Assembly (NCBI GenBank): GCA_025453955.1
Contig: JALOPJ010000001.1
Span: forward strand, 12,515 to 76,514
Origin: Candidatus Edwardsbacteria bacterium
Lineage (GTDB): Bacteria > Edwardsbacteria > AC1 > EtOH8
Direction of reading: 5' to 3'
DNA: 64,000 nucleotides
Part shown: in pieces, positions 3,765-64,000 of the stretch
Numbering within the stretch: position 1 is the stretch's first letter
Layout of the letters: each line of letters begins with the position of its first letter
Translations under genes and position numbers: made by a program
The notes under the pieces: model-generated
Told to the model about the DNA's origin: nothing
Seen by the model: only the letters and a program-made list of their open reading frames with translations
Database searches by the model: none

Positions 3765-3851
3765 TGGTGCCGGGAGTGGGACTTGAACCCACATGGCTTG
3801 CGCCATACGCACCTCAAACGTACGTGTCTACCAAAATTCCACCATCCCGGC
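3765..3851 (-). tRNA. tRNA-Leu (anticodon GAG), type II with long variable arm; CCA is genomically encoded
   Basis: The reverse complement GCCGGGATGGTGGAATTTTGGTAGACACGTACGTTTGAGGTGCGTATGGCGCAAGCCATGTGGGTTCAAGTCCCACTCCCGGCACCA folds as follows. Acceptor GCCGGGA/TCCCGGC. D stem GTG/CAC with a long D loop. Anticodon stem TACGT/GCGTA with loop TTGAGGT, giving anticodon GAG and G37. Variable arm GGC-GCAA-GCC. T arm GTGGG-TTCAAGT-CCCAC. Discriminator A, then CCA. Confidence 0.85.
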
Positions 3852-47137: not shown

Positions 47138-47158
47138 CGGTGGATCATCTTGTCCCTT

Positions 47159-48355
47159 TTAGCGGGTGCCGCGCAGCTCCTCGACGAATCGTCGGACCAG
47201 CGTCCGGTGACGCTCGTCGTCCGAAAACCGCTGCCACCAGAACGAGTACGCCGCGACGATGATGCCGACAAAAATACCGACGAAAGCGGACAACGCAACG
47301 ATCGGCAGGCGTTTGGGCCAACTCTTGCGATACGGCGGGGCCGCCCGCTCCAGGAACTGGACTTTTGGCGTGTCCTTGGCCTCCAAGATCTTCGCCTGCT
47401 CCAACTGCTGCATCAGTAACGCATACAGCTCCTGATGGATCCTTACGTCCCGAGTCAGCTGCCCCAGCATAATCCCAATCTCCGGTGCCTTGGCAAAGGA
47501 AACGAACAACGTCTTCCCCCGCCCCCCGGCGACTAGCGTGTTCAGCTCCTGCTGCGACTTCGCAATCTGGTTCTCGAGGACCTTCACCTGGGTGTTGTCA
47601 TCGGTCGCATACGATTTGAGGGCGTCCAGTTCGATCTTCTGGCCGATGATCTTGGCTTCCAGCGTCGCGGTCATCTCGACCAGGGCCTTCATCTCATCTG
47701 GCAGTGAAATCGTCTTGTACCGCTGCTGGAACTGCTTGAGCGAATCCTCGGTCTGCTGCAGCAGCGACTCCTCCTGGAGCAGGCGTTTCTCGATGAACTC
47801 CCGCATCTTGCCGCCTTGGGTCATGGTCATCTTCGCATAGACACGGTCCAAGGCCTCGCCGTAAGCGTTAGCAATATCGGCGGCCTTGGTTTTACTCTTA
47901 TCCTCGACCGTGATGGTAATGAACCGCTCGTCGGTGACATTGATGACGGTGGCCCGTTTCAACCGTTTGGCGACGTTGTCCATCGCCTTATCCTGCCGCT
48001 TTGCGAACGCCCTGTCCTGCTTGTAATGATTGACCAGGCCGCACTCACCGATGACGATGCTGGCGACCGTTCCGCTCCTCAGCATGTAGGCGAACACGTC
48101 GGATGGTGTGATCATCCCTGGCATGAAACCGGTACCGCCGATCTCGGGATCGGACATCAGGCTGGTTCGGCTCATCAATGACATGAGGCTGGCACCCTGC
48201 GAGACCGGCGGCATCAGCGTAGCAGTGGCCTTATACTTCTTTGGGATGGCCAAGCTCATCGCCAATCCGAACGCCGTAAAACCGATGGTCGTCCACATGA
48301 TCAGCCTGCGGTTCCTTGCAAACGCAAGCAGCATCTCGTACATGCTGTTGAACAT
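47159..48355 (-). CDS. wzz: Polysaccharide co-polymerase / chain-length determinant (Wzz/GumC family)
   Basis: N-terminal TM (LIMWTTIGFTAFGLAMSLAI), a long coiled-coil periplasmic domain, and a C-terminal TM (LPIVALSAFVGIFVGIIVAAY). Confidence 0.75.
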   Translation of the reverse strand: MFNSMYEMLLAFARNRRLIMWTTIGFTAFGLAMSLAIPKKYKATATLMPPVSQGASLMSLMSRTSLMSDPEIGGTGFMPGMITPSDVFAYMLRSGTVASIVIGECGLVNHYKQDRAFAKRQDKAMDNVAKRLKRATVINVTDERFITITVEDKSKTKAADIANAYGEALDRVYAKMTMTQGGKMREFIEKRLLQEESLLQQTEDSLKQFQQRYKTISLPDEMKALVEMTATLEAKIIGQKIELDALKSYATDDNTQVKVLENQIAKSQQELNTLVAGGRGKTLFVSFAKAPEIGIMLGQLTRDVRIHQELYALLMQQLEQAKILEAKDTPKVQFLERAAPPYRKSWPKRLPIVALSAFVGIFVGIIVAAYSFWWQRFSDDERHRTLVRRFVEELRGTR

Positions 48356-48363
48356 GACCCCTC

Positions 48364-49296
48364 CTACTGCACTCGTGCAACTTGCCAGACGATGAAGCCC
48401 ATCGTCGTCACCTGGGCCAGCAGGTTGATGTAGTCGCGCCAGCCCTTGATCTGCATCTCGCCCACCACCACCACGTCGCCGGGCTCCATGGTGGTGCTTT
48501 CCTTCCCCTTCACCGCCTTGCCGCCCCAGCGGTTGATCCTGATGTTCCCGGTGCTGGCGCGCTCGGCGTAGCCGCCGGCCATGCCGATGTAGTAGGACAG
48601 CAGGGTGCCGGGCTCGAACGGGAAGGTGCCGCCCTTCTGCACCTGGCCCACTACCGTGATCGTGGTCGGCGTGGTCGGCACGGTGATGATGTCGCCCTCC
48701 TGCAGCGGGATGTCGAGCGCGGGATCACGGTCGATGGAAAGCCGCTTGAAATCGATGCTGATCACGCTGTCCAGCCGGGCGATGTTCTGGACCTTGATGT
48801 TCTCACGGGTGGCGATGGGCGTGAATCCCCCGGCCATCACGATCGCGTCCATCAGCCGCTCGCCCTGCTTGATCTCGTACTTGCCGGGCCGGAACACCTG
48901 GCCGGCGATGGTCACCATGTTCTCGGCCAGCGGAAAGAACACGATGTCCCCGTCCCTCACCTCGGGGTTCTCCTCCTGCCGGTTCTGGGTCATATACCGG
49001 TAGAGGTCGAGCGTGTCGATCGGCTGGCCGCCCCGGATAAGCACCACCGAGCGGATCGAGGCCTGCTCGTTGGGGCCGCCCGCGACGCCCACCGCGTTGG
49101 CCACGCGGTCGTAGGCCTGCAGGGTGTGGAGACCGGGGTTGCGCACCTGGCCCAGCACCTGCACCTTGATCGCCGGGCGTTCCCGGGTCCAGTCCAGGCC
49201 GGTCTGCTGGACGATCGTCCGCTGCGACAGCGCCGGTGCGGCCAGGACGAGCATCGAGGCTATCACTGCGACAATAATGGTAGAGCGTCTCATCAT
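48364..49296 (-). CDS. wza: Polysaccharide export protein (Wza family; Poly_export + SLBB domains)
   Basis: Signal peptide MMRRSTIIVAVIASMLVLAAPALS. Motifs VQVLGQVRNPGLHTL and TVVGQVQKGGTFPFEPGTLLSYYI are SLBB-like. Start at the cat-cat at 49291-49296. Confidence 0.8.
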   Translation of the reverse strand: MMRRSTIIVAVIASMLVLAAPALSQRTIVQQTGLDWTRERPAIKVQVLGQVRNPGLHTLQAYDRVANAVGVAGGPNEQASIRSVVLIRGGQPIDTLDLYRYMTQNRQEENPEVRDGDIVFFPLAENMVTIAGQVFRPGKYEIKQGERLMDAIVMAGGFTPIATRENIKVQNIARLDSVISIDFKRLSIDRDPALDIPLQEGDIITVPTTPTTITVVGQVQKGGTFPFEPGTLLSYYIGMAGGYAERASTGNIRINRWGGKAVKGKESTTMEPGDVVVVGEMQIKGWRDYINLLAQVTTMGFIVWQVARVQ

Positions 49297-49687
49297 GATA
49301 TCCATGTGATACTGCTGTTTGATTGATCCTTGATACCGACAGGTCATTTACCGGGGATGGCCGTGCCTCCCGATACATCCGCCGCAGGTCGAGTGGCCGC
49401 CATCTCGATACGAACCGGTCACGGTCCTACTCGATGTGCGGCTGTATCGAGACCCGGCGGACTACTCGAGGCACGGCCCGGTTCAGCAACAAAAACCGGG
49501 CGACCGTCAGACGGCGCCCGGCAAAGGAATGCGAGGTCCTTTGTCTCCAAAGAAGCTTGGATACGGCGCGCCGTGCCAAAGCGGGGTTTCGAGCAATCCC
49601 GAGCTTTCGAAGGTATGTCAGAATGTCCGAAAACCGCCGACTTTAACGCTCTCGCCCGTACGCTCCCTTGGATTGATAATTGCCGAT

Positions 49688-49716
49688 ATTTTACACCAGA
49701 ATGCCTGATTTGTCAA
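49688..49716 (-). promoter_or_regulatory. Near-consensus sigma70 promoter for the polysaccharide locus (wza operon)
   Basis: Minus strand: TTGACA (plus tgtcaa at 49711-49716) - 17 nt - TAAAAT (plus atttta at 49688-49693). It is followed by a roughly 385-nt leader before wza. Confidence 0.5.
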
Positions 49717-49735
49717 GCACTTAATGCATTATCTT

Positions 49736-49787
49736 GACCCCGCCCTGCCCTCCCCGAATGCGTTCGGGGTGGGTCAAGGGAGGGGTC
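49736..49787 (-). terminator. Imperfect GC-rich hairpin immediately after the oxidoreductase gene stop (terminator-like)
   Basis: gaccccgccctgccctcccc-gaatgcgttc-ggggtgggtcaagggaggggtc. Separates the upstream gene from the wza promoter. Confidence 0.35.
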
Positions 49788-50895
49788 ATGCCTGTCGCAG
49801 CAGGTCAGCCACCTGCTCCCCGATCGCCAGGCTGGCCGTCAGACCGGGCGACTCGATCCCCAGCAGGTCGACGAATCCCGGGAACCCGCGGCCGGCCTCT
49901 TCCCGGATGACGAAGTCCCGGACCTCGTCATCGCCCGGGCCCTGCAGCTTGGGCCGGACCCCGGCCTGGTCCGGCGCCAGCCGGGCGGCGTCGATGGCGG
50001 GGAACAGCCGCCGCGCGGCGGCCTGGAACGCCGCCAGCTTGCGTTCGTCCACCGTGAAGTCGTCGGTCGACGACACGTACTCCACGTCCGGCCCGAACCG
50101 CAGCCGGCCGGCCAGGTCGATGGTGGCGTGCACGCCCAGGCCGGTCAATCCCTTCTCCGGGATCGGGTAGACCAGGTGCGTCACCCGGTGCGTTCCCGCA
50201 TAGGCGAAGTACGATCCCTTGCAGGGGTGCATGGCCTCCGGCTCCAGCCCCGGCATCCGGGCGACGGCCGGCGCGCCCAAGCCGCCGGCGTTGACCACGG
50301 TCGCCGATCCGAACTCCTCGCCGGAGCGCAGCCGCAGCCGGTACCCGGCGCCAGCCCGGTCCAGTGCCACCACCTCGGACTCGTAGGAAACGGTTCCGTT
50401 GTCCGCTGCGATGTCGGACTCCAGCGCCTTCATGTAGGAATGGGTGTCGAAGATGCCGGTCTCGGCCAGGAACAGCGCCGCGCTGGCCCGCACCTCCGGT
50501 TCCAGCGCCGCCGCCTGTCCGCCGGTCAGGCGCTCGACGTTCTCGATCCCGTTGCGGAGGCCTTTCTGATAGAGCGCCTCCAGCTCCGGTTCCTCGACAG
50601 CGTCGGCGGCCACCACCAGCTTGCCGCACTTCTTGAACGGGACGCCCCTGGCCTCGCAGTATTGGTACAGGGCGCGCCGCCCCCCGACGCACAGCCGGTG
50701 CTTGAGGCTGCCGGTGGGGTAGTACAGGCCGGAATGGACCACCTCGCTGTTGCGGCTGGAGATCCCCGTCCCGAACGACTTGCCCTGCTCGACCACCAGC
50801 ACGTCGTTCTCGCCGTGAAAGCGCGCTGCCAGCGCGCGGGCCACGGCCAAGCCGACCGCGCCCGCGCCGATCACCGTACAGCGGAACGACAGCAC
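49786..50895 (-). CDS. FAD-dependent oxidoreductase (L-2-hydroxyglutarate oxidase/LhgO-like)
   Basis: N-terminal dinucleotide-binding motif (VIGAGAVGLAVARALA) in the DAO family. Confidence 0.75.
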   Translation of the reverse strand: MLSFRCTVIGAGAVGLAVARALAARFHGENDVLVVEQGKSFGTGISSRNSEVVHSGLYYPTGSLKHRLCVGGRRALYQYCEARGVPFKKCGKLVVAADAVEEPELEALYQKGLRNGIENVERLTGGQAAALEPEVRASAALFLAETGIFDTHSYMKALESDIAADNGTVSYESEVVALDRAGAGYRLRLRSGEEFGSATVVNAGGLGAPAVARMPGLEPEAMHPCKGSYFAYAGTHRVTHLVYPIPEKGLTGLGVHATIDLAGRLRFGPDVEYVSSTDDFTVDERKLAAFQAAARRLFPAIDAARLAPDQAGVRPKLQGPGDDEVRDFVIREEAGRGFPGFVDLLGIESPGLTASLAIGEQVADLLRQA

Positions 50896-50899
50896 CGCG

Positions 50900-51538
50900 T
50901 CAGCACTTCCCGTGGATGAAGTTGTCGGACCTGGGGTCGGCCCGCCAGGCCTTCAGCGTGAACCCGTCGCGGTCCTTGTCGGTGATCAGGGCGCCGGCCG
51001 CGACCAGCGAGTCGAACTCCCGCTTCAGCGCCGGGTCGCACAGCGCCCAGTCGATGTCCGGGGCCAGCGGCGAGATGCCGGCCTCGCAGCCCGGGCTGTA
51101 CTCGCCCGAGCAGAAGTACTCGATCCGGCTCTCGGCGGTGAAGTAGTTGCCGTGGGCGAAGCCGGCCGGCACCCAGATCCACTCGCCGTGGGGCGCGTCG
51201 GGGTCGTCGGGCAGGTCGCAGGCGGCGGCCTGGCCGAAGGTCGGCGATCCCTTCCTGATGTCGAGGAACAGGTCCACCATCCGGCCGGACGTGGTGCGCA
51301 CCAGCTTGCCCATGTACGGGTTCCACTGGAAGTGCAGGCCGCGCACCGTGCCGGGCCGCGACCGGCTCTCGTTGCACTGGCCGAACGAAACGCCCCGCAT
51401 GAAATCCAGCTCCGGCAGTCGCTCGAAATCGCTGCGGCGGTAGGTCTCGGTGAAGTAGCCCCGGTGGTCGGCGAACCGCTGGTAGCGGACCACCTTGACG
51501 TCGGGGATGGCCAGGTTGGTAACGCTGAGAATCTTCAT
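50900..51538 (-). CDS. rfbC: dTDP-4-dehydrorhamnose 3,5-epimerase-like (RmlC cupin)
   Basis: RFADHRGYFTETY...RGLHFQ has the conserved RmlC His/Asp/Tyr context, 212 aa. Confidence 0.75.
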   Translation of the reverse strand: MKILSVTNLAIPDVKVVRYQRFADHRGYFTETYRRSDFERLPELDFMRGVSFGQCNESRSRPGTVRGLHFQWNPYMGKLVRTTSGRMVDLFLDIRKGSPTFGQAAACDLPDDPDAPHGEWIWVPAGFAHGNYFTAESRIEYFCSGEYSPGCEAGISPLAPDIDWALCDPALKREFDSLVAAGALITDKDRDGFTLKAWRADPRSDNFIHGKC

Positions 51539-51566
51539 TCGTCCCTCCGTGTGATACTATTTCTTT

Positions 51567-52340
51567 CTACCTGCGACTGACGATCGTCGCCGACGCCTGG
51601 GCGGTCGGCATGATCACGATGGTCTCGATGTCGACATGGGCGGGGCGCTCGCAGGCCCAGACCACGGCCTCGGCGACGTCGGCCGCCGCCAGCGGCCGCA
51701 GCCCCTGGTAGACCTTCTTGGCCCGTTCCCGGTCGCCGCGGAAGCGGACCACCGAGAACTCGGTCTCGGCCAGGCCGGGGTCGACGCTGGTGACCCGCAC
51801 GCCGGTGCCGGACAGGTCCATCCGCATCGCCTTGGTGAGCGCCCGCACCGCCGCCTTGGTGGCGCAGTAGACGTTGCCGGACGGATAGGTCTCGTGCCCG
51901 GCGATCGAGCCGACGTTGACCACGTGCCCGCCGCCCCGCGCCGCCATGCCCGGCAGCACGGCGCGGGTGACGTAGAGCAGGCCCTTGACGTTGGTGTCGA
52001 TCATCTCCTCCCAGTCGCGGACCTCGCCCGCCTGGAGGGGGTTGAGGCCGCGCGACAGCCCGGCGTTGTTCACCAGGATGTCGATGTCCCGCCAGCCGCG
52101 CGGCAGCCCGGCGATCGCCGCGGACACCGCACGGCGGTCCCGCACGTCCAGGGGCATGGTGCGGACCTCGGCGCCATGCTCGCGGATCAGCCCGCGGGCC
52201 AGCTGCCGCAGGCGGCCGATCCGCCGGGCGGCGACGATCAGCCGCGCGCCCCGCGCGGCGAAGGCCTCGGCGCAGGCCAGCCCGAAGCCGCTGGAGGCCC
52301 CGGTGACCAGGACGGTCTTCCCCGTCATCGACGTGCTCAT
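51567..52340 (-). CDS. SDR family oxidoreductase
   Basis: VLVTGASSGFGLA, NNAG, YCATKAAV (YxxxK). Confidence 0.8.
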   Translation of the reverse strand: MSTSMTGKTVLVTGASSGFGLACAEAFAARGARLIVAARRIGRLRQLARGLIREHGAEVRTMPLDVRDRRAVSAAIAGLPRGWRDIDILVNNAGLSRGLNPLQAGEVRDWEEMIDTNVKGLLYVTRAVLPGMAARGGGHVVNVGSIAGHETYPSGNVYCATKAAVRALTKAMRMDLSGTGVRVTSVDPGLAETEFSVVRFRGDRERAKKVYQGLRPLAAADVAEAVVWACERPAHVDIETIVIMPTAQASATIVSRR

Positions 52341-53641
52341 AACGTCTCCACGATCAGCGGCGGCGGCTCGGGACGCTGCGGCGATACCCGGATCAGCTCG
52401 GTCAGCCGGGCCGCGGCCGCGGCCGCCTTGGCCCGGTCGTCGCTATGGACCGTCGCCACCGGCTCGCCCTGCGCCACCGGGTCGCCGATCTTCTTGAGGA
52501 AGGTGAACCCGGCCGCCGGGTCGACGGCGTCGGCCATCGTCCGCCGGCCGCAGCCCAGGTCGACCGAGGCCATCCCCACCTCCCGGTTGTCCATGCCGGC
52601 GACGAACCCGTCATCCGGCGCGTAGACCGCGACGGTGCCGGCCGCCTGCGGCAGCCGCTGCTTCGGCTCGTCCGCCACCCGCGGGTCGCCGCCCTGGGCG
52701 GCCACCATCTCGCGGAACTTTTCCAGGCCCTGGCCGGAGTCGACGATGCCGCGCAGGGCCCGGCGGGCGGCATCCAGGTCGGCGGCCCGCTCGCCCATCA
52801 CCAGCATCTCGGCGCCCAGCTCGTAGGTGACCGCCATCAGGTCGGCCGGGCCGCCGCCCCGCAGGCACTCGACGCATTCCCCGATCTCCAGGGCGTTGCC
52901 GACCGTCCGTCCCAGCGGCTGGTTCATGTCGGTGATCACCGCCCGCATCCGCCGGCCCATCCCCGCGCCGATGGCCAGCATCGTCCGGGCCAGGGCCCGG
53001 GAGTCGTCCAGTCCCTGCATGAAGGCGCCGCTGCCGGTCTTGACGTCCAGCACCAGGCCGTCGGCGCCCTCGGCCAGCTTCTTGGACATGATCGACGCCG
53101 AGATCAGCTGCAGGCAGTCCACGGTGGCGGTGACGTCGCGCAGGGCGTAGAGCTTCTTGTCGGCCGGCGCCATGTCGGCGGTCTGGCCCATCATCGCCAG
53201 GCCGGTGCGGGCCAGGATCCGCTTGAACTCGTCGTAGGACAGGTTCGTGCGGAAGCCGGGGATCGACTCCAGCTTGTCGAGGGTGCCGCCGGTGTGGCCC
53301 AGCCCCCGTCCCGACACCATCGGCACCGGGACGCCGGCGGCGGCGACCAGCGGCGCCAGGACGATCGACACCTTGTCGCCCACCCCGCCGGTGGAATGCT
53401 TGTCGACCTTGATCCCGGGGATGTCCGACAGGTCGAACACCCGGCCCGACTCCATCATGGCCGTGGCCAGCTGGGTGGTCTCCGCGAAGTCCATCCCTTT
53501 CAGGAAGACCGCCATCAGCAGAGCCGCCGCCTGGTAGTCGGGGATCTCCCCGGCGGTGTACCGTTCGACGAACCAGCGGATCTCGGCCGCGGTCAGCGCC
53601 CCGCCGTTGCGTTTCTTGTAGATGATCTGGTATGGCGTCAT
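52337..53641 (-). CDS. deoA: Thymidine/pyrimidine-nucleoside phosphorylase
   Basis: Start MTPYQIIYKKRNGGALTAAEIRWFV (cat at 53639-53641). Conserved KHSTGGVGDK and SGRGLGHTGGTLDKLE motifs. Confidence 0.85.
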   Translation of the reverse strand: MTPYQIIYKKRNGGALTAAEIRWFVERYTAGEIPDYQAAALLMAVFLKGMDFAETTQLATAMMESGRVFDLSDIPGIKVDKHSTGGVGDKVSIVLAPLVAAAGVPVPMVSGRGLGHTGGTLDKLESIPGFRTNLSYDEFKRILARTGLAMMGQTADMAPADKKLYALRDVTATVDCLQLISASIMSKKLAEGADGLVLDVKTGSGAFMQGLDDSRALARTMLAIGAGMGRRMRAVITDMNQPLGRTVGNALEIGECVECLRGGGPADLMAVTYELGAEMLVMGERAADLDAARRALRGIVDSGQGLEKFREMVAAQGGDPRVADEPKQRLPQAAGTVAVYAPDDGFVAGMDNREVGMASVDLGCGRRTMADAVDPAAGFTFLKKIGDPVAQGEPVATVHSDDRAKAAAAAARLTELIRVSPQRPEPPPLIVETL

Positions 53642-53732
53642 GGTGCTCCATCGGTGACGGCCGGCGCGGCCGGCCCGGGGCGCCGGCAAAAACGCCCTGA
53701 ACGGACGTCAGGGCGCGGGAGCGGCGGCGCCG

Positions 53733-54197
53733 TCACGACTTGCTGCGCAGCGACAGGTTCAGCAGCACCGGCCCGTGGCGGGTCTCCACCGGGATGGTGA
53801 CGATCTCCATGCCGCTGTTGGTGATGTCCATGTCGTGGCCGGTGAACAGCGTCGGCGGGTTGATGTCCATCCGCAGGCCGCGGTTGACCAGGGCCGACAC
53901 CGCCTGGCCGCAGACCATGTTGTTGAGCTCGTTGATGGTGGAGCTGACCATGGCGTCGTAGGAGCCGGCCGGCTCGCCGCTCATGGCCCCGGCCAGGCTG
54001 CAGGCGGTCTCCCGCGACATGTCCAGCACCGCCCGGCCCTCGGACGACCCGGTGATGCCGATGATGCTGGCCACCCCCATGGTGGCGATGGGCGACGATT
54101 TGACGCCGACCGCCCCGCGCTTCACCGGCTGGCCGGTGGACTGCTCCAGCACCTTGACCAGCGCGTCGACGAACGGCTGGATGAACTCGCTCCTCAT
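53733..54197 (-). CDS. cheX: CheX-like chemotaxis phosphatase domain protein (CheC/CheX/FliY family)
   Basis: 154 aa. MRSEFIQPFVDALVKVLEQSTGQPVKRG...SIIGITGSSEGRAVLDMSRETACSLAGAMSG matches the CheX fold pattern. Confidence 0.7.
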   Translation of the reverse strand: MRSEFIQPFVDALVKVLEQSTGQPVKRGAVGVKSSPIATMGVASIIGITGSSEGRAVLDMSRETACSLAGAMSGEPAGSYDAMVSSTINELNNMVCGQAVSALVNRGLRMDINPPTLFTGHDMDITNSGMEIVTIPVETRHGPVLLNLSLRSKS

Positions 54198-54242
54198 GGA
54201 TCGGCCTCTCTTCTGGCTCCGTGTTCGCGGGGCGCCGCCCGG

Positions 54243-55703
54243 TCAGTCGTACCCGATCAGCATCAGCAGCCCGTTGACCACCTCGGGATCGAACTGGGTG
54301 CCGCTGTTGCGCTTGATCTCGCCCACGATGTCCGGCAGCCCCAGCGCCTGGCGGTAGACCCGCGGCGACACCATGGCGTCGAAGGCGTCCGCCAGCGCCA
54401 GGATCCGGGCCTTGATCGGGATCTGTTCCCGGGACAGCCGGTCGGGATAGCCGCCGCCGTCCCAGCGCTCGTGGTGGTGGCGGATGTCCGCGGTGATGGC
54501 CCGCAGGTTGTCGATCTTGGAGACGATCTCGGCGCCCAGCACCGAATGCCGCCGCACGATGGCCCACTCGTCGTCGCTCAAGGCGCCCTTGTAGTTGAGG
54601 ATGTGCTTGGGCACGCCCAGCTTGCCGACGTCGTGCAGCAGCGCCGCCATCTCCAGCTCCTTGAGGTCGAACAGGCCGTGCGACATCAGGTAGGCCTGGT
54701 TCATGGCCGAGGCGATGTTCTTGGCCTTGATCGCCACCCGCTCGGAATGGCCGCTCTCGTAGGGATCGCTGATCTGCAGGGCGTTGACCAGCACCTTGAC
54801 CATCTGGAAGCGGTTCTGCTCGAACTCGTCCTGCAGCGAGAAGACCCGGTTCAGCTCATGGGCCATCTCGTGCTGCATCCGGTCCATCTCGCTCTCGTAG
54901 GAGACCCGGACCTGGGACTTGACGGTGCGCTTCAGCTCGCGCGAGCGGTCCACCGCCCGCCGCAGCGCGGCGGCGATCTCGTCGACCGGCTCGTCGTACG
55001 ACAGGAAATCCGCCGCCCCCGCCCGCAGCGCCCGGCGGATCTCGTCGTAGTCCCTGTCCCGGGCCACCATCGCGACCGGCGTGAACCGGTGCTGGGCGGC
55101 GAACCGCTCGACCAGCTGCCAGCCGGCGCGGTCGGCCACCGGCACCAGCAGGGCGTCGACGGCGGTGGTGGCGTAGCGTTCCAGCAGCGCCGGGGCGTCC
55201 GCGGCCGTCGTCACCGTGAATCCGCCCCGCTGCCGCAGCCGCCGCGCCAGGGCCCGGTCGTCGTCGCCGCGTTCCCAGGCCAGCAGCTGGAGGTCGCTGC
55301 CGCCGCCCTCACCGCCCCCGGTCCCGGCGGCCAGCTCCCGCGACAGCTCGCTGCGGATCTTCTGCACCAGGGTGTCGACGTCGAACGGCTTCTCCAGGTA
55401 CTGCCGCGCGCCCAGGGCCCGGCCGCGCTCCTCCATCTCCTGCGTGCCGAAGGCCGTCATCAGCATCACCGGCACCCCGGGATGGTTGGTCTTCATGTAC
55501 TCCAGCAGCTCGAAGCCGTCCATCTGGGGCATCTTGATGTCGGTGACCAGCAGGTCGACGGTCTGGCGCTTCAGCACCGCGACCGCGGCCCGGCCGTTCT
55601 CGGCGGTGATGATCCCGAAATCCTGCTCGTGGCCCTGCAGGCCCTGCGACAGGATGGACAGGAACGCCCGCTCGTCGTCGACGATCAGTACCTGTTTCAT
55701 CAT
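54243..55703 (-). CDS. Response regulator with tandem receiver domains and C-terminal HD-GYP phosphodiesterase domain
   Basis: REC1 is VLIVDDERAF...LLVTDIKMPQMDG...EKP. The second REC-like domain is degenerate. HD-GYP is LLHDVGKLGVP...HHERWDGGGYP. Confidence 0.85.
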   Translation of the reverse strand: MMKQVLIVDDERAFLSILSQGLQGHEQDFGIITAENGRAAVAVLKRQTVDLLVTDIKMPQMDGFELLEYMKTNHPGVPVMLMTAFGTQEMEERGRALGARQYLEKPFDVDTLVQKIRSELSRELAAGTGGGEGGGSDLQLLAWERGDDDRALARRLRQRGGFTVTTAADAPALLERYATTAVDALLVPVADRAGWQLVERFAAQHRFTPVAMVARDRDYDEIRRALRAGAADFLSYDEPVDEIAAALRRAVDRSRELKRTVKSQVRVSYESEMDRMQHEMAHELNRVFSLQDEFEQNRFQMVKVLVNALQISDPYESGHSERVAIKAKNIASAMNQAYLMSHGLFDLKELEMAALLHDVGKLGVPKHILNYKGALSDDEWAIVRRHSVLGAEIVSKIDNLRAITADIRHHHERWDGGGYPDRLSREQIPIKARILALADAFDAMVSPRVYRQALGLPDIVGEIKRNSGTQFDPEVVNGLLMLIGYD

Positions 55704-55760
55704 GGGTCCTCCCTGCTGCCGATTATAGCCAAAGCCCCGTCGAAAAGCAAGCGCTTTCGG

Positions 55761-57692
55761 TCAGGCGCCGGCGGGTTCCGCGGCGCCCGCGTCCTGCGGC
55801 GCCGTGGCCGGGATGGAGATCACCACCTCCGTGCCCCGGCCGATCCGGCTGTCGACCTCGATGGTGCCGTTCATCTTGGCGATGATGTTCTTGGTGATCA
55901 CCAGCCCCAGCCCGGTCCCGGTCGACTTGGAGGTGTAGAACGGCTTGAACAGGTTGGCCAACTGTTCGGCCGACATGCCGCAGCCGTTGTCCCGCAGGGC
56001 GATCCGCACCAGTGCGCCATCCCGCCGGGCCGTGATGTCGATCTGCTTGGCGTCCCGGCCCTCCAGGGCGTCGGCGGCGTTGGACAGCAGGTTCAGCATC
56101 ACCTGGTGCAGGGCCCGGGGATCAGCCCAGGCGCTGGCGGCGTCGGGATCGCAGCGGTGGTTGATCTTGATGCCCTTGCTCTTGAAATCGCCGGTGGCCA
56201 GCATCACCAGTTTCTTGAGGAAATCGGCGACGTCGACGGGCTGGATCTTGGGGGCCTCGTACATGCTGAAGTTCTTGAGGGAGCGCAGCAGGTCCTCCAT
56301 CCGCGCCACCTCGTTCATGGCCATGTCGACGAACTTGCGCAGCGCCTCGGGCTGCCAGCCGGACAGGTTCTTCTGGACGATGCTGGTGGCCATCTTCATC
56401 GAGTTGAGGGCGTTGCCGATCTCGTGGCGGATGCCGGAGAAGACGTAGCCGATGTTGTTCATGGTGTTGGCCGCCTCGGCGATCGACTGCAGCCGCCGCT
56501 TCTCGGTGACGTCCCGGGTGATGGCCACGAAATTGAAGATCTCGCCGTCGGCGTTCTGCACCGCCGAGATGGTGGCCTCCTCCTCGAAGACGGTGCCGTC
56601 CTTCTTGCGGTTGAGGAAGTATCCCTGCCAGGTCGTGCCCGCCAGCAGGTGCTGCCACAGGGACCGGTAGAACTCGGCATCGTGCCGGCCGCTCTTCCAC
56701 AGCGACGGCGTGCGCCCCCGCACCTCGTCCGCCGCGTAGCCGGTCACCGCCGTGAACCGGGGATTGACGTACTGGATGACGCCGTCGCGGTCGGTGATCA
56801 CCACCGACTCGTCCATCTGCTCCATCGCCTGCGAGAGGCGGTTCAGCGCCTCCCGGCTGGTGCGGCGCTCCAGGGCCGTGGAGATGTGCCGCGAGACGAA
56901 GTTCAGCAGCTCCTTGCCCTTCTCGCCGAACCGCAGCTTGCCGCTGTAGCTCTGCACCGCCAGCACGCCGATCGTCTGCTCTCGCCGCTTGAGCGGGACC
57001 CCCAGCCACTCGACCGATTGGGTGCCGAAGGGGACCAGGTCCGGCAACGTCGAGTGGCGGGTCAGCTCGTCGCGGGAATCGAGGAACGGCTGGCCGGTCT
57101 TGATCACGTAGTCGGTGACCCCACCGCTCAGTCGGCGGGGCCCGGAGGGCGGGTCGTGCTCGTCCTCCCAGAACGGGAAGCTCATCGTATCGCTGGCCGG
57201 GTCGTAGAGGGCGATGTACATGTTCCCGGTCCCCATCAGCCGCTGGACGATGCCGTGGATCTCGCGGTAGAACTCCTGCATGCTCTCGGCCCGTTCGGTC
57301 AGTTCGCCGATGGCGTAGAGCGCCTGCTGCAGGTCCTCGGCCTGCTTGCGTTCGGTGATGTCGCGCTCGATGGCCACGTAATTGATGGTCTCGCCGTCGT
57401 CGCCCCGCACCGGCGAGATGGTGACCTCCTCGTCGTGGAGGGTGCCGTCCTTCCGGCGGTTGGTCAGGGTGCCCTGCCAGATGCGCCCCTGCGCCAGCTG
57501 CGCCCACATCTCGCGGTAGAAACCGTCGCCCTGCCGGCCGCTGTTCCATGCCCGCGGGTTGCGGCCCACCACCTCGCCGCGGTCGTAGCCGCTGATCTTG
57601 GTGAAGGCCGGGTTGACGTACTGGATGGTGCCGTCGCGGTCGGTGATCACCACCGACTCCTCCATGCTCTCGATGGCCAGCCCCAGCCGCAT
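55761..57692 (-). CDS. Sensor histidine kinase, C-terminal fragment (PAS-GAF-PAS-HisKA-HATPase_c) of a disrupted giant hybrid kinase
   Basis: 643-aa ORF with PAS (VVITDRDGTIQYVNPAF), GAF, PAS, an H-box (HEIGNALNSM) and N/G boxes (LLSNAADA..., DNGCGM, GTGLGLV). In-frame upstream sequence still aligns with the preceding GAF repeat. Confidence 0.8.
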   Translation of the reverse strand: MRLGLAIESMEESVVITDRDGTIQYVNPAFTKISGYDRGEVVGRNPRAWNSGRQGDGFYREMWAQLAQGRIWQGTLTNRRKDGTLHDEEVTISPVRGDDGETINYVAIERDITERKQAEDLQQALYAIGELTERAESMQEFYREIHGIVQRLMGTGNMYIALYDPASDTMSFPFWEDEHDPPSGPRRLSGGVTDYVIKTGQPFLDSRDELTRHSTLPDLVPFGTQSVEWLGVPLKRREQTIGVLAVQSYSGKLRFGEKGKELLNFVSRHISTALERRTSREALNRLSQAMEQMDESVVITDRDGVIQYVNPRFTAVTGYAADEVRGRTPSLWKSGRHDAEFYRSLWQHLLAGTTWQGYFLNRKKDGTVFEEEATISAVQNADGEIFNFVAITRDVTEKRRLQSIAEAANTMNNIGYVFSGIRHEIGNALNSMKMATSIVQKNLSGWQPEALRKFVDMAMNEVARMEDLLRSLKNFSMYEAPKIQPVDVADFLKKLVMLATGDFKSKGIKINHRCDPDAASAWADPRALHQVMLNLLSNAADALEGRDAKQIDITARRDGALVRIALRDNGCGMSAEQLANLFKPFYTSKSTGTGLGLVITKNIIAKMNGTIEVDSRIGRGTEVVISIPATAPQDAGAAEPAGA

Positions 57693-60600
57693 CAGCGATT
57701 CCTGGCTGCGGCTCGCCGCTCTTGAGCGGGACGCCCAGCCAGTCGACCGACGGGCTGCCGATGGTGGCGATCCCCTTGTCCAGCTGGATCCGCTCGGCCC
57801 CGTCGCCCGTCAGGAACAGCGGCTCCCCGGTGGTGATGATGTAGTCGGTCAGCCCGTTGGCCAGCTCCCGCGGCGGCGGCGGCGAGTCCATCTCGTCGAT
57901 GAAGTAGGGGAAGCTGACCCGGCGGGTGGCCGGATCGTAGAGGGCGATGAAGAAGTTCGGGGTGTAGATCAGCGCCTCGATCACCCGGTGCACCGCCGCG
58001 TAGAATTCCTGGAGGTCCCCGGCGGTGTTGGTGATCTCCTCGATGCGGTAGAGCGCTGCCTGCAGGGCCTCCGACTGCTTGCGTTCGCTGATGTCGCGGC
58101 TGTTGATGATGATCCCGCTGACCACCGGGTCCCGCAGCAGGTTGTTGCCGACCGATTCCAGGTAGACCCAGGTGCCGTCGGCCCGCCGGGCCCGGTACTC
58201 GATCTGCCGGATCAGCCCCGGCTGGTCGAGGTGGCTCTGCAGCGCGTCCATCACCCGGGGGCGGTCGTCGGGATGGACCAGGTCGTAGGCGCTGGTCCCC
58301 AGCAGGGCGCCGGGATCGTACCCCAGCACGTGGGTCGACTCGTAGGTGATGGTCCCGGCCGCGTCGACCACGATGATGTCGTCGCTGGAGTGCTGCACCA
58401 TGGCCCGGAACCGCTCCTCGCTGCGGGCCAGCGCCGCCACGGCCCGCCGCCGCTCGTCGATGTCCATCAGGGTCAGGCAGACGCCGTAGACCTGCCCGGA
58501 GGCGTCGTGCACGGGGTTGAAGCCCGCCTCGAACCAGTGCTGTTCCCCCTGGCGCACGAACGGCAGTTCGGCCGCCAGCGACCGGCCCTGCTTGGCGGTG
58601 TTGATCTGCGCGGTGAACCCGTCGGCCTGGTCGGGTGCGAGGTAATAGTAGATCAGGTCGTCCTGCCGCAGCGCCCGGCCGCAGTAGGCCTGGGACCAGT
58701 CCGCCGCCCGGCTGTTGAACGACTTGATCTTCTGGTGGAGGTCCAGCAGGATGAACACCTGGTTGCTGCTGTTGAACACGGCCCGCAGGTCGGCCTCCGA
58801 CCGCCGCAGCGCCTCCTGGGTGCGCTTGCGCTCCAGCGCCACGGCCACCTGCTGGGCGACGTAGGTCAGGATCTCCTTGTCGCGTTCGACGAAGAACATG
58901 CTGTCCGCGTAACTCTGCACCACCAGCGCGCCGATGGTGGCCTGGGACGTCTTGAGCGGCACCGCCAGCAGCGCGGTGGGCAGGGCCCCCTGGATGTCGA
59001 CCGCCGACTCGTCCATCAGCTTGCGGAGGTGCTCGCGGAACGCCAGCAGCGGCTGGTTGTGGCGGATGATGTACTCGGTCAGGCCGCGGCCCATGCGGCG
59101 CGACTGGGGCGGCAGGTCGAACTCGTCGACGAAGTACGGGTAGGTCAACTGCTGGGTGGCGGGATCGAGCAGGCAGATGAAGAAGTTCCGGGCGTACATC
59201 AGCTCCGCCACCACCCGGTGGATCCCGGCGAAGAACTCCCCCATGTCGCCCGCGGCGTTGGTCAGCTCGGACAGCTTGTAGATGGCGTGCTGCAGCTGGT
59301 CGGCCTGGCGCCGCTCGGTGACGTCGCGCGAGTTGATGATCACGCCGTTGATCACCGGGTCGGCGATCAGGTTCTGGGCGATGTGCTCCAGCGTGCGCCA
59401 GGACCCGTCGGCGTGCCGGATGCGGCATTCCACCGGCGGCAACGGCCCGACCAGCGACAGGTTGCGCCGCAGCGTGCGGCGGACCGCCGGGACGTCGTCG
59501 GGGTGCACCAGGGACAGCAGCGGCCGCCCGGCCACCGCGTCGGGCGCCAGCCCCAGCACGGTCCCCGCCGACGGGCTGGCATAGCGGATGGTCTGGTCGG
59601 CGTCGACGATGGTGATGATGTCGCTGGAGTTCTTGAGCAGGGCCCGAAAGCGCTCCTCGTTGTTGCGCAGGTCCTCGTCGGCCCGTTTGCGCTCGCTGAC
59701 GTCCTGCGTCAGGCTGACCACCCGGTCCACGACCCCGTCCCGGCCGGTGATCCCGTAGATCTGCTGGGAGATCCAGGTGACGCTGCCGTCGTCCTGGTCC
59801 ACCACCCGCAGCTCGGGGAAGGCCAGGGTGCCGCCGCGGTCGAACACCTCGGCCACCCGCGCCGTGTCGACGCCCCAGGAAGCGTATGACCGGATGATCG
59901 TCTCCATGTCCACCTGGCGCACCCGCGGGATATCGGCGTCGGTGATCCGGCAGATGCGCTGCCAGGCCCCGTTGTGGATCAGCAGCCGGCCGGCGCGGTC
60001 GCGCACGGTGATCCCGACCGGGGAATGCTCGATCACCGTGCGGCTGAACTCCTCGCTCTGGCGCAGCTGCAGCTCGGCCCACTTGCGCTGGATAGCCAGC
60101 GCTGCCTGGTTGATGATGGTCTCGACCACCGGCCGGTTCTCGATGGTGTCGCCCTGCCGCAGCAGCACGACCACGCCGCCGTAGAGCCGGCCCTCGATGG
60201 TGAACCCCATGCTCTGCACCTGGCGCACGCCCAGCAGGCGCTCGACGGCCCGGCAGACGGCACGGGGCAGCCGGCGGGCCGACAGCGTGTGCAGCCCCCC
60301 GGGAACCGCCATCAGCTTGCCGCTGGTGAACCAGCCCAGCTCCTCGGCGGTCATCTCGTCGGTGCGGATGGCCAGCGTCCGGGGCTCCAGCCCCAGCGCC
60401 TCGGTGACCCGTCCCAGCTGCTGCTCGAACCCCCAGCTGCTGTGGATCCGGATCGTCCCGTCGTCGGGTTCGTACCGGCAGATGATCAGGTACGGGCCGT
60501 TGGTCAGCTCGCGGAGCACCTCCCCGAGGTACTGGAAGATCCCCTCGATCCCGTCCATCGAGTTCAACAGCGACGTCGTCTCGTAGAGCACCGACAGCTC

Positions 60601-61386
60601 CCGCAGGTACTGCCGCTCCTTCTCCTCGGCCAGCCGCCGGGAGGAGATGTCCTCGACCCATCCCTCGTAGTAGAGGACGCTGCCGTCCGCGGCCCGCACC
60701 GCCGTCGCGCTCTCCCGGACGACGATCCGCTGCCCGTCCCTGGCGCGCCAAATCGATTCGTGGTTGGCCACGTGGCCGTCGCGGTCGAGTGCGGCGAAGA
60801 ACGATTCCCGGTCGGGTGCCGGCGCCATCGCCTGCTGTTGCAGGTTGATCCGGGCCAGGCCCTCGAACGAATCGTACCGCAGCATCCGCACCAACGCCGG
60901 ATTGGCATAGAGCACCGCCCCCGCCGGCGTCGTCTGGTATACCCCGCTCGGCAGGTTCTCCAGCAGCTCGCGGTTGCGCCGTTCGCTCTCGGCCAGCGCC
61001 TGTTCGGCCTGCCGCCGCAGCAGCGAGTTGCTGATGGCGCCGGGCAGGGCGGTCAGGTAGTGGCGGTCGTGGTCCTTGATGATGTAGTCGTAGGCGCCCT
61101 GCCGCAGCGCCCGCGCCGCGATGGCCTCGTCGCCGTGGCCGGTGACGAAGATCACGGGGGTGCCGCCGGCGCGGTGCAGCACGTCGAGCCCCGTCCCCTC
61201 CCCCAGCAGGTAATCGGACAGGATCACGTCGTAGCGGTGCCCCCCGATCGATGCCAGCGCCTCGGCCAATGAACCGGCATCGGTCACCTCGTACGGCAGC
61301 CGCTGTTCGTCGAAAAAACGCCGCATGGCGGCCCGGTCGACCGGGTCGTCGTCGATCAGCAGGATGGCGTATCGGTGTTCGGTCAT
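57693..61386 (-). pseudogene. N-terminal portion (REC + multiple PAS/GAF modules) of the same giant hybrid sensor kinase, separated from the kinase core by a frameshift/deletion
   Basis: Start MTEHRYAILLIDDDPVDRAAMRRFF (receiver domain). This is followed by at least 5 PAS and 3 GAF domains in tandem repeat units. The reading frame of the 1854-aa track ORF leaves the homologous frame at about 57,700 (…VDWLGVPLKSGE then nonsense). Confidence 0.7.
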
Positions 61387-61408
61387 CGTCGCCGTTCGTC
61401 GCATGGCA

Positions 61409-62608
61409 TCAGCTGGCATCTCGTCGCAGGGTGCGGGCCCGGACCACCGCCCGCCGCCCGAAGCGTTCCCGCACGGTGTCCACCGCGGCGTCGACGGTGC
61501 GCCGCCTGCCGCGGAGGGGATCGTCGGCGGCGAACAGGTCCGGGGGGCGACCGCTGCCGCCGAAGTTGGTGACCGTAACGCCGACCAGCCGCAGCGGGCG
61601 CGTCCGGTCGCCGTGCGCCTGCAGCAGCCCCCGGGCCGCCGTGTAGAGGCCGATGGTCTCGTCCAGCCCCTCCGCCACCGTGGCACGGTGGGTGTGGGTC
61701 TCGAAGCCCTGGTAGCGCAGCTTGAGGGTGATCGTCCGGCCCCGCAGGCCCTGCCGCCGCAGCCGGGCGGCGACGCGGTCGCACAGCTCCAGCAGGGTCC
61801 GGACGATCTGTTCGCGGTCGGCCGTGTCCCGGTCGAACGTCAGCTCGGCGCCCAGCGATTTCTCCCCTCGCCCGCCGCTCACCGGGTCGTCGTCCTCGCC
61901 GGCGGCGCAGCGCTGCAGCCAGCGGCCCGATTCCCCGAACCGCGCCGCCAGCGCCGCCGGGTCCAGCGCCGCCAGCTGGCCGATCTCACCGACGCCCAGT
62001 TGCAACAGCGCCGCCTCGGTCGCCGGGCCGACGCCCCACAACCGCCGGATCGGCAGCGGCGCCAGGAAGGCCCGCGCGTCGCCGGCCGCGACCACCACCA
62101 GGCCGTCGGGCTTGCGCAGGTCGGAGGCGATCTTGGCCACCAGCTTGTTGGGCCCGATCCCCACCGACGCCGTCAGCCCGGTGCGCTGGCGGACGGCGGC
62201 CTTGATCCGGGCGCCGGTCTGATGAGCGTCGCCCCACAACCGCCGGCAGCCGCTGAGGTCGAGGAAGGCCTCGTCCACCGACACCTGCTCGACCAGGGGA
62301 GTGAAGCCTTCCAGCACGGCCATCACCTGGCCGGACACCTCGCCGTAGCGCCGCATCCGGCCCGGCAGGAACGCGGCGCCGGGACAGAGCCGGTAGGCCT
62401 GCGAGATCGGCATCGCCGAATGCACGCCGAACCGCCGCGCCTCGTATGATGCCGCCGAGACCACGCCCCGCCCCGCCCCGTTCCTGGGGTCGGCGCCGAC
62501 GATCACCGGCCGGCCGCGCAGCGACGGATCGTCCATCACCTCGACCGCCGTGAAGAACGCGTCCATGTCCACGTGGGCGATCACCCGTTCGCCGGATGCG
62601 TCCGTCAT
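61409..62608 (-). CDS. dinB: DNA polymerase IV (Y-family)
   Basis: IAHVDMDAFFTAVE, SVDEAFLD, and little-finger domain. 399 aa. Confidence 0.9.
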   Translation of the reverse strand: MTDASGERVIAHVDMDAFFTAVEVMDDPSLRGRPVIVGADPRNGAGRGVVSAASYEARRFGVHSAMPISQAYRLCPGAAFLPGRMRRYGEVSGQVMAVLEGFTPLVEQVSVDEAFLDLSGCRRLWGDAHQTGARIKAAVRQRTGLTASVGIGPNKLVAKIASDLRKPDGLVVVAAGDARAFLAPLPIRRLWGVGPATEAALLQLGVGEIGQLAALDPAALAARFGESGRWLQRCAAGEDDDPVSGGRGEKSLGAELTFDRDTADREQIVRTLLELCDRVAARLRRQGLRGRTITLKLRYQGFETHTHRATVAEGLDETIGLYTAARGLLQAHGDRTRPLRLVGVTVTNFGGSGRPPDLFAADDPLRGRRRTVDAAVDTVRERFGRRAVVRARTLRRDAS

Positions 62609-62635
62609 GATGCGGCCGTTCAGGGGGCCGTTCCG

Positions 62636-63337
62636 CTACTTGGCGGGGACCGTCTGGCTGTCGAGGGCCGCCGGCGCGATCTCCCGGTCGATCTTGCCGG
62701 ATCCGCCGTCCCAGCCGATGGCGAAGTCGTCCATGGTCGACGAGACCGCCAACTCGCCCGACTGGCCCGGCTCCGTCGTCAGCGCATAGGCCGCCCGCCG
62801 CAGCTGCCGGTCGTTCCAGACCCGCAGGTTCAGCCGCGCCTGGTCGGCGCCGACGGCCCGGATCCGCAGTTCCACCACGTCGCCGCCGGTGAACTCGGCC
62901 CTGGTCTCCCCGTCCTTCAGGGTGTACTTGAAGTTGGGGATGCGGCGGGTCACGGCGAACTCGCCGGCGCTGCCGGTCTCCTGCATCCTGGCCTTCATCT
63001 CCTCGAGGCTGGTCCGCTCCTGGGGATGGAGGTTGGGATTGCTCAGCGCCAGCTGCACCACCGGCAGGTACTCCTCGGCGGTGGCCGGTCCGGTGTGCCG
63101 GTCCTCGCTGTCGTAGAAATGGAGCTCGACCGCCCCGCTGGCCTCGACCGAGAACCCGTGCATCGTTGCCGGATCGACCCGTTTGGCCGCGGTGTCCGCC
63201 GGCGCCGCGGCCGGCAGCGAATCGAGCTTCATGCCGGTCTTGGAGGTGAACCCGGCGTCGCCGGGCTGCCGGGAGCAGCTGCCGGACAGCAGCAGGGCCC
63301 CGGCCAGGATCGTCGCCAGTGAATGTGCGCGGTTCAT
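62636..63337 (-). CDS. Hypothetical lipoprotein
   Basis: Start MNRAHSLATILAGALLLSGSC with a lipobox (LSGSC), no recognisable domain. Overlaps the nth stop by 4 nt. Confidence 0.55.
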   Translation of the reverse strand: MNRAHSLATILAGALLLSGSCSRQPGDAGFTSKTGMKLDSLPAAAPADTAAKRVDPATMHGFSVEASGAVELHFYDSEDRHTGPATAEEYLPVVQLALSNPNLHPQERTSLEEMKARMQETGSAGEFAVTRRIPNFKYTLKDGETRAEFTGGDVVELRIRAVGADQARLNLRVWNDRQLRRAAYALTTEPGQSGELAVSSTMDDFAIGWDGGSGKIDREIAPAALDSQTVPAK

Positions 63338-63963
63338 GATCGCTCCTTGCTGTGATGCCAAGTGCAGTGTCGCTGGATGGGGCAGGCCGGACAGGCTGGC
63401 CGGCCGGGATGGCAGACCGCCCGGCCGTGGGCAATGAGGTTGAGATGCAACGAAAGCACCAGCCGGTCGGGCACCAGCCGGCGGAACCGCTCCTGGAAGG
63501 CGGCGGGCGTCTCGCCGGGTCGCGCCCAGCCCAAGCGCTGCGAAATCCTGGCGATGTGGGTGTCGACCGGGAAGATCGGCGTCCCCTGGCCGAACAGCAG
63601 CGTGCAGGCTGCCGTTTTCGGCCCCACGCCCGCCAGCGACAGCAGGTAGCGGTAGGCGTCCTCCGCCGGCAGGCGCCGCAGCGGCTCGAGCGTCGGCCGG
63701 CCGAACCGCCGGGCGAACTCCGACAGCAGCGCCTTGATCCGCACCGCCTTGATGTTGGCCAACCCTCCCGACGCGATCGGGGCGGCGACCGCGCGCACCG
63801 GGGCGTCCATCACGAGATCCCAGCGGGGGAACCGGCGCCGCAGCGCCAGGTATGCCCGGTGGCTGTTGCGGTCGTTGGTGTTCTGCGACAGCACGGTCTC
63901 GACCAGCACGTCCAGCAGCGGCCGGCGGCGCGCCCGCCGGGGCCGGCCGTAGCGGCGCGCCAA
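63334..63963 (-). CDS. nth: Endonuclease III-like HhH-GPD DNA glycosylase with 4Fe-4S cluster
   Basis: HhH motif (LSLAGVGPKTAACTLLFG) and a C-x6-C-x2-C-x5-C cluster (CHPGRPACPACPIQRHC). The N-terminus lies close to the window edge. Confidence 0.75.
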   Translation of the reverse strand: MARRYGRPRRARRRPLLDVLVETVLSQNTNDRNSHRAYLALRRRFPRWDLVMDAPVRAVAAPIASGGLANIKAVRIKALLSEFARRFGRPTLEPLRRLPAEDAYRYLLSLAGVGPKTAACTLLFGQGTPIFPVDTHIARISQRLGWARPGETPAAFQERFRRLVPDRLVLSLHLNLIAHGRAVCHPGRPACPACPIQRHCTWHHSKERS

Positions 63964-64000
63964 CGCCGCCGCCGCCGCGCTGATCGTGCCCCGGGACGGC

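Follow-up and report, generated by a model that had tools for sequence, protein, structure and literature searches.

Reading frames at the disrupted kinase locus

The window analysed here is a 64,000-nt stretch of contig JALOPJ010000001.1 from a Candidatus Edwardsbacteria bacterium. From 61386 to 55761 on its minus strand lies one giant REC–PAS/GAF–HisKA–HATPase sensor kinase gene, the frame of which is broken at 57710-57713. The first frame opens at ATG 61386 (MTEHRY; MTEHRYAILLIDDDP) and gives recognisable protein for 1225 residues, ending with ...SVDWLGVPLKSGE (also written ...SPSVDWLGVPLKSGE) at about 57712, after which it is nonsense until the stop at 56122. The second frame reads ...SRSQESLMRLGLAIESMEESVVITDRDG... 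from about 57712 and gives good protein as far as the stop at 55761. With ATG 57692 as the first start codon, this frame contains an open reading frame (ORF) of 643 residues. The reference for the intact allele is L001, a syntenic contig of 53 kb (JGI 3300037461) that encodes the protein P0001. The parts of the gene are as follows.

55761..61386, minus strand: whole disrupted gene, the remnant of a 1913-residue REC-PAS/GAF-HisKA-HATPase_c sensor histidine kinase; 99.96% nucleotide identity to L001:10001-15742 besides one 116-nt gap
57712..61386, minus strand: N-terminal true coding part of 1225 residues, with REC, five PAS, a region without Pfam match, GAF1 and a truncated GAF2
57710..57713, minus strand: deletion junction, its placement ambiguous through a 2-bp GC microhomology, located by alignment to the intact allele and by the flip in codon-position GC
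56122..57711, minus strand: out-of-frame continuation of the N-terminal frame, 529 codons and a stop, non-coding and rich in Arg, Gly, Ala and Pro
55761..57692, minus strand: C-terminal 643-residue ORF from an internal ATG, with PAS-F, GAF3, PAS-G, HisKA and HATPase_c, identical to residues 1271-1913 of P0001

The GC content at the three codon positions is 0.69/0.43/0.96 upstream of the break. Past the break, the first frame continued gives 0.96/0.61/0.42 and the second frame 0.62/0.43/0.96, with the flip falling exactly at the junction. Therefore, the frame switch lies in the DNA itself and is no misreading. An earlier note on this DNA had placed such a switch at about 57,700, in good agreement with the position that the GC flip and the alignment to L001 now define.

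A 116-nt deletion in the second GAF domain

Alignment of L001 against window positions 45761-64000 revealed three substitutions and one indel. The substitutions are at 61316 (Tyr to Phe), 60094 (synonymous) and 48505, two of which, one synonymous, fall within the gene. The deletion aside, Tyr24 to Phe in the receiver (window 61316) is the one non-synonymous change with respect to the intact JGI allele.

The sole indel is a segment of 116 nt, present in L001 and missing from the window between 57713 and 57712. The missing DNA, GCAGGTGATC...CCTGGAGCGCC, codes for (E)QVIGAIVVQSYSGNLRFGTRAQEILTFVSRNIAIALERR; the lost residues are EQVIGAIVVQSYSGNLRFGTRAQEILTFVSRNIAIALERR. With a slash at the point of joining, the window junction reads ...AAGAGCGGCGA/GCCGCAGCCAGG... 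(CGGCGA/GCCGCAG), and the two junctions of the intact allele read ...GGCGA/GCAGGTGATC... and ...CTGGAGCGCC/GCCGCAGCC.... The deletion can slide by 2 bp (GC) only, and its endpoints share no meaningful homology.

The 116 nt correspond to 38⅔ codons (3 × 38 + 2); therefore, the frame is lost too, being shifted by -2. The gap of roughly 40 residues that the earlier note had suspected in the second GAF domain is thus real with respect to L001. In the intact GAF2 region as modelled by AlphaFold2, with a mean predicted local distance difference test (pLDDT) score of 77.6, the lost segment comprises the last β-strand (model residues 136-145), the loop after it and the initial half of the long exit helix (model residues 154-192), which leads into the next PAS domain. 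Based on this model, even an in-frame loss of the segment would have destroyed GAF2 and its link to the downstream modules.

The intact gene in relatives

Homologs were searched with the two coding parts joined as the query. P0001 from JGI (1913 residues) has 98% identity over 100% of the joined query and is 39 residues longer than it. P0002 (1906 residues) and P0003 (1919 residues, named Candidatus Edwardsbacteria) show identities of 70% and 67%, respectively, and P0005 from ENA, a single protein of 1643 residues, shows 63%. The cluster of P0001 also contains P0124, a second complete protein of 1913 residues from a Logan assembly, as well as three NCBI partials, among them P0122 (467 residues), which crosses the deletion site. 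P0004 (NCBI MCU0605894.1, 1754 residues, 'MAG: Candidatus Edwardsbacteria bacterium') matches with 100% identity over 65% of the joined query.

In the protein alignment, the deleted segment is present in five of the five orthologous sequences that cover the site (P0001, P0124, P0122, P0002 and P0003), and the paralogous GAF1 and GAF3 have it too. The residues encoded by the 116 nt are conserved GAF residues. The contig L002 (Logan SRR22184557), which encodes P0124, has a nucleotide identity of 93-94% overall and retains the 116 nt with one synonymous difference. Comparison of the intact gene between L001 and L002 yields a ratio of non-synonymous to synonymous substitution rates (dN/dS) of 0.26, and dN = 0 across the deleted segment. 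Purifying selection thus acts on the intact gene; therefore, the ancestral state is a functional single gene.

Orthologs made of two genes with the same boundary, which the earlier note had named beforehand as the finding that would refute its suspicion of a broken gene, were found neither among P0001, P0124, P0002 and P0003, all single proteins of 1906-1919 residues, nor in the partial P0122 or the single P0005. The locus is one gene and not a conserved two-gene system. The idea of a split two-gene system is thereby set aside, as all five sequences are continuous at the site. The alternative idea of a frameshifted pseudogene gains support from the same comparison, with continuous intact orthologs and about 39 GAF2 codons lost. 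Sensor and kinase lie on a single continuous polypeptide in L001, L002, P0002 and P0003, and do not in the window.

The protein P0005 lacks exactly residues 1101-1383 of P0001 (283 residues), in frame. Among the repeated sensor modules described below, the unit that it retains matches unit 3 at 74% identity and unit 2 at 55%; therefore, the whole of unit 2 has been lost, at the conserved RDI(S/T)ERKQ linker. This loss is natural copy-number variation of sensor modules. The lesion in the window differs from it in type, being an illegitimate join at a 2-bp microhomology.

A search of P0001 against GTDB representatives returned only distant PAS-domain relatives with identities of 25-41% (Sulfurimonas, Ignavibacteriaceae and others) and no ortholog. 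A literature search on Edwardsbacteria, the sample and the accession numbers returned no paper dealing with the gene or with the samples.

Repeat units and the origin of the break

The units of the sensor array are paralogous at both the protein and the DNA level, as was noticed earlier from the window. Unit 2 (GAF2-PAS) and unit 3 (GAF3-PAS) share 55% of residues (E 1e-71) and 72% of nucleotides over 876 nt, with a period of 283 residues or 849 nt. Between unit 1 and unit 2, the identity is 41-49% for residues and 65% for nucleotides. An 18-mer quoted in the earlier note as occurring twice indeed starts at 56793 and 57642, and is part of the longest exact repeat of the gene, of 30 nt, which has two copies away from the junction.

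57630..57659, minus strand: 30-nt exact repeat, copy 1 (ESVVITDRDG)
56781..56810, minus strand: 30-nt exact repeat, copy 2

The three paralogous units and this exact repeat are what could recommend a repeat-mediated deletion, or an assembly collapse, between PAS-GAF units, both of which had been considered from the window. We regard this explanation as highly improbable. The nucleotide alignment to the intact allele refutes it, as both endpoints lie within the same GAF2 of unit 2, 116 nt apart against a period of 849 nt, with 2 bp of homology. Counted from the junction, the 30-nt repeat is 54 nt downstream, and either event, recombination or collapse, would drop one 849-nt unit in frame if it took place across this repeat. 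Collapse of near-identical repeats was rejected in addition, as the units are 65-72% identical in DNA and the endpoints share GC alone; therefore, a k-mer repeat collapse cannot yield this junction. Aligning the units at the nucleotide level, as had been suggested for defining the junction, gave the period and the identities above, and the junction itself was defined against L001 and not between units.

Other origins were also tested. A search for short repeats near the junction found none that coincides with the deletion endpoints. Hairpin-mediated slippage was considered because the flanks CTGGCTGGGCG and CGCCGCAGCCAG pair in the minimum-free-energy DNA fold, but it was not taken up, since the fold is no better than that of shuffled sequences (z = +0.89). 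A programmed frameshift, an intein or an intron was rejected, since in every relative the 116 nt absent here code for conserved residues of the GAF core.

Domain architecture of the kinase

The domains of the N-terminal part, with residues of the first frame, are listed in order from the start codon.

61051..61365, minus strand: REC (receiver), residues 8-112; Pfam Response_reg, 66.7 bits against a cut-off of 30.2
60646..60978, minus strand: PAS-A, residues 137-247; Pfam
60049..60624, minus strand: stretch of about 190 residues from PAS-A to PAS-B, matching 0 Pfam families
59707..60048, minus strand: PAS-B, weak, residue 447 onward, with the N-terminal part alone matching; PAS_8, 25.5 bits against a cut-off of 21.8
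59305..59637, minus strand: PAS-C, residues 584-694; Pfam
58831..59247, minus strand: GAF1, residues 714-852; GAF_2, 44.1 bits
58444..58776, minus strand: PAS-D, residues 871-981; Pfam
58087..58416, minus strand: PAS-E, residues 991-1100; PAS_3, 62.2 bits
57715..58017, minus strand: truncated GAF2, profile positions 3-98 of 136; GAF_2, 16.8 bits, below the cut-off of 28.6

The domains of the C-terminal part are given with residues of the 643-residue ORF.

57342..57677, minus strand: PAS-F, residues 6-117; PAS_9, 74.8 bits
56868..57287, minus strand: GAF3, residues 136-275; GAF_2, 44.7 bits
56508..56840, minus strand: PAS-G, residues 285-395; Pfam
56253..56444, minus strand: HisKA dimerisation/phospho-acceptor domain, residues 417-480; PF00512, 28.0 bits against a cut-off of 26.9
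55803..56123, minus strand: HATPase_c, residues 524-630; PF02518, 93.6 bits

The full order is REC, PAS, about 190 residues without match, PAS, PAS, GAF1, PAS, PAS, GAF2, PAS, GAF3, PAS, HisKA and HATPase_c, with the tandem sensor modules joined by conserved RD(I/V)(S/T)ER(K/R)Q helices. The earlier note had read it as REC, three PAS-GAF-PAS units and HisKA-HATPase. The kinds of domains were right, but the strict threefold pattern does not hold, since there are seven PAS and three GAF domains. The kinase had also been called a hybrid, a loose label in that the receiver, although present, is N-terminal. The GAF2 of the window gives no full-length match above the cut-off, whereas the intact P0001 shows three GAF_2 stretches.

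The receiver has the acidic pocket in LLIDDDP, the phospho-acceptor Asp58 in VILSDYLL and Lys104 in YDYIIKD. HisKA carries its phospho-acceptor H-box, IRHEIGN, at residue 421 of the 643-residue ORF, and HATPase_c carries the N box LNLLSNAADA, the G1 box DNGCGM, the F box FKPFYTSK and the G2 box GTGLGL. No membrane segment is evident in the kinase sequence. The stretch of about 190 residues that separates PAS-A from PAS-B gave no match in a Pfam search at E <= 0.01, and might be a divergent GAF-like sensor domain. This stretch is conserved in the orthologs.

The gene resembles the multi-sensor PAS/GAF histidine kinases with an N-terminal receiver, which are named 'PAS domain S-box protein' in NCBI and JGI. 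REC, PAS, GAF, HisKA and HATPase_c all score above the Pfam cut-offs, and the gene encodes the H, N, G1, F and G2 boxes as well as the receiver Asp. It differs from them in that the frame of the window is interrupted in GAF2, uncoupling the sensor array from the kinase core, in that about 190 residues after the first PAS have no Pfam match, and in that the orthologous group of P0001-P0005 (Candidatus Edwardsbacteria) is uncharacterised. As judged from its domains, the intact protein is an uncharacterised member of this very large class. The lesion is either a commonplace frameshifting deletion or an artefact, the gene that it affects is of an ordinary kind, and nothing here amounts to a new kind of system.

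A probable recent loss-of-function allele

Based on the intact relatives and the exact extent of the gap, we propose that the window probably carries a genuine and very recent loss-of-function deletion allele, a pseudogene, of a Candidatus Edwardsbacteria population. The ancestral gene would have encoded one cytoplasmic sensor histidine kinase of 1913 residues, with an N-terminal receiver, seven PAS domains, three GAF domains and HisKA-HATPase_c. A single 116-bp deletion within the GAF2 coding region would then have arisen by illegitimate, microhomology-level joining of two points sharing 2 bp. Upon this deletion, GAF2 would lose its last β-strand and the first half of the exit helix, and the frame would shift by -2. 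The upstream product would consist of REC, five PAS, GAF1 and two-thirds of GAF2 followed by 529 nonsense residues, with no kinase core, and the core would be obtainable only via internal initiation at ATG 57692. The deletion allele would coexist with the intact allele in closely related populations. The frame is disrupted relative to intact orthologs under purifying selection, as in a pseudogene. Most likely, the junction exists in cells and not merely in the library or assembly, and the allele is non-functional.

Several observations weigh against this proposal. The junction is supported by one assembly only, and every other assembly covering the site is intact, including the near-identical one with three substitutions in 18 kb, a pattern also expected of a one-off artefact. 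No other deposited protein matches the deletion allele; P0004 is a singleton, and the members of the cluster are intact or partial. An exact scan of metagenome contigs did not find the junction 30-mer, and the 34-nt left flank shared by both alleles was not found in metagenome or genome contigs, collections that evidently do not contain L001 or L002. With the left flank unmatched in metagenome and genome contigs and the junction 30-mer in metagenome contigs, neither allele has therefore been independently sighted there. In addition, an exact-protein look-up found neither the 643-residue ORF nor P0004 on record in the indexed assemblies.

These observations bear on a library or assembly artefact, which we consider a possible but clearly less probable explanation. 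The organism would then carry the intact 1913-residue gene, and the gap would have been made in vitro or in the consensus and fixed in the deposited contig. Polymerase template switching in amplification, chimeric reads, or consensus, polishing or bubble resolution might each have produced it. The intactness of the essentially identical L001 and the confinement of the deletion allele to one assembly are in line with such an origin, and the predicted pairing of the flanks CTGGCTGGGCG and CGCCGCAGCCAG could favour template jumping, although the hairpin is, as noted above, no more stable than shuffled sequence. However, only 2 bp are shared at the junction, so that graph collapse is impossible and reads containing the junction must exist; as the junction has no shared k-mer, a de Bruijn assembler would therefore have needed such reads. 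The low identity between the repeats also stands against an artefact. The remaining 18-kb overlap with L001 contains no other indel, which argues against a noisy long-read consensus. We retain a real deletion allele as the favoured explanation.

The deposited protein

The protein P0004 (MCU0605894.1, 1754 residues, 'PAS domain S-box protein') is the exact translation of window 61386..56122. Its last 529 residues (30%) are out-of-frame nonsense, in which a Pfam search found no domains, and it has no HisKA, no HATPase_c and no third GAF. The wrong frame is open in this DNA of 69% GC, and MCU0605894.1 is therefore presented as a 1754-residue protein with a nonsense tail. In this respect, the gene is like frameshift pseudogenes of high-GC genomes that are annotated as long ORFs, with a wrong frame open for 529 codons and no unusual feature.

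The main relevance of the lesion is one of quality control, as users of the two-component inventory of this metagenome-assembled genome would miscount or mis-describe the gene. More generally, a frameshift in DNA of 69% GC may escape flagging because a wrong frame can remain open over 1.6 kb. Should the allele be real, one more case of strain-level loss of a sensory kinase would be added.

Neighbouring genes and the C-terminal ORF

A gene for a DinB-type polymerase lies upstream of the kinase gene. Two genes follow in the same direction, and a possible re-initiation signal lies inside the kinase gene.

54243..55703, minus strand: response regulator with HD-GYP (HHERWDGGGYP), downstream neighbour, from its translation and from Pfam Response_reg, HD_5 and HD on the near-identical L001 gene
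53733..54197, minus strand: CheX-family protein, from Pfam CheX on the near-identical L001 gene
57700..57703, minus strand: AGGA, putative Shine-Dalgarno sequence for re-initiation, 7 nt upstream of ATG 57692, also in the intact allele; a similar motif occurs in about half of the 22 called L001 genes

The HD-GYP regulator gene starts 57 bp downstream of the kinase gene on the same strand, and its product has the order REC, a second receiver-like region and HD-GYP. This regulator is the probable cognate partner of the kinase. The gene order suggests that the regulator and CheX form a phosphorylation-controlled phosphodiesterase module for cyclic di-GMP (c-di-GMP) with its own phosphatase. Most likely, the intact kinase would phosphorylate this regulator and so control the hydrolysis of c-di-GMP, CheX being the presumed phosphatase, and its own N-terminal receiver would place the kinase as a node in a longer phosphorelay.

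The RpfC/RpfG system of Xanthomonas is a two-component pair of a kinase and a REC-HD-GYP regulator, in which RpfC, a hybrid kinase bound to the membrane, carries REC and HPt domains at its C-terminus. Similar to this pair, the kinase gene here is followed 57 bp on by a REC-HD-GYP regulator gene on the same strand, which points to phosphorylation-controlled c-di-GMP hydrolysis. Unlike RpfC, the kinase here appears soluble and carries an N-terminal receiver, and a CheX-family protein is encoded in the operon in addition.

In a functional split, or a gene fission in progress, the 643-residue PAS-GAF-PAS-HisKA-HATPase_c kinase from ATG 57692 would still signal to the REC-HD-GYP regulator, with the N-terminal part acting separately or being degraded. 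The in-frame ATG 20 nt past the junction, the AGGA before it, the presence of every catalytic box and of complete PAS, GAF, HisKA and HATPase_c domains in the ORF, and the tolerance of the family for loss of a whole sensor unit, as seen in P0005, are compatible with this possibility. However, both the ATG and the AGGA belong to ordinary coding sequence (QESLM), which the intact allele has as well, and ribosomes in the upstream frame pass through the site for 529 further codons. No ortholog is split at the site, and the gene has only two substitutions with respect to the intact allele, so there has been no time for adaptation. A sigma-70 scan for a promoter of the downstream ORF, uninformative for this phylum, found no promoter-like site. 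We therefore consider a functional split unlikely. It is a slightly fainter prospect still that the deletion allele is both real and frequent and that the 643-residue kinase is made from ATG 57692, a snapshot of gene fission in which a giant kinase is losing its N-terminal receiver and sensor array. If true, gene fission would rewire the control of the adjacent REC-HD-GYP/CheX c-di-GMP module. A recent loss-of-function allele remains the reading that we prefer.

On the plus strand, window 53775-57725 contains an ORF of 1316 residues that is antisense to the genes for the kinase, the HD-GYP regulator and CheX. This frame is an artefact, kept open by the high GC content, and further long shadow ORFs, several in number, occur in the region. 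An Rfam search of the whole 64-kb window at the gathering threshold gave one match, a tRNA at 3768-3851 on the minus strand.

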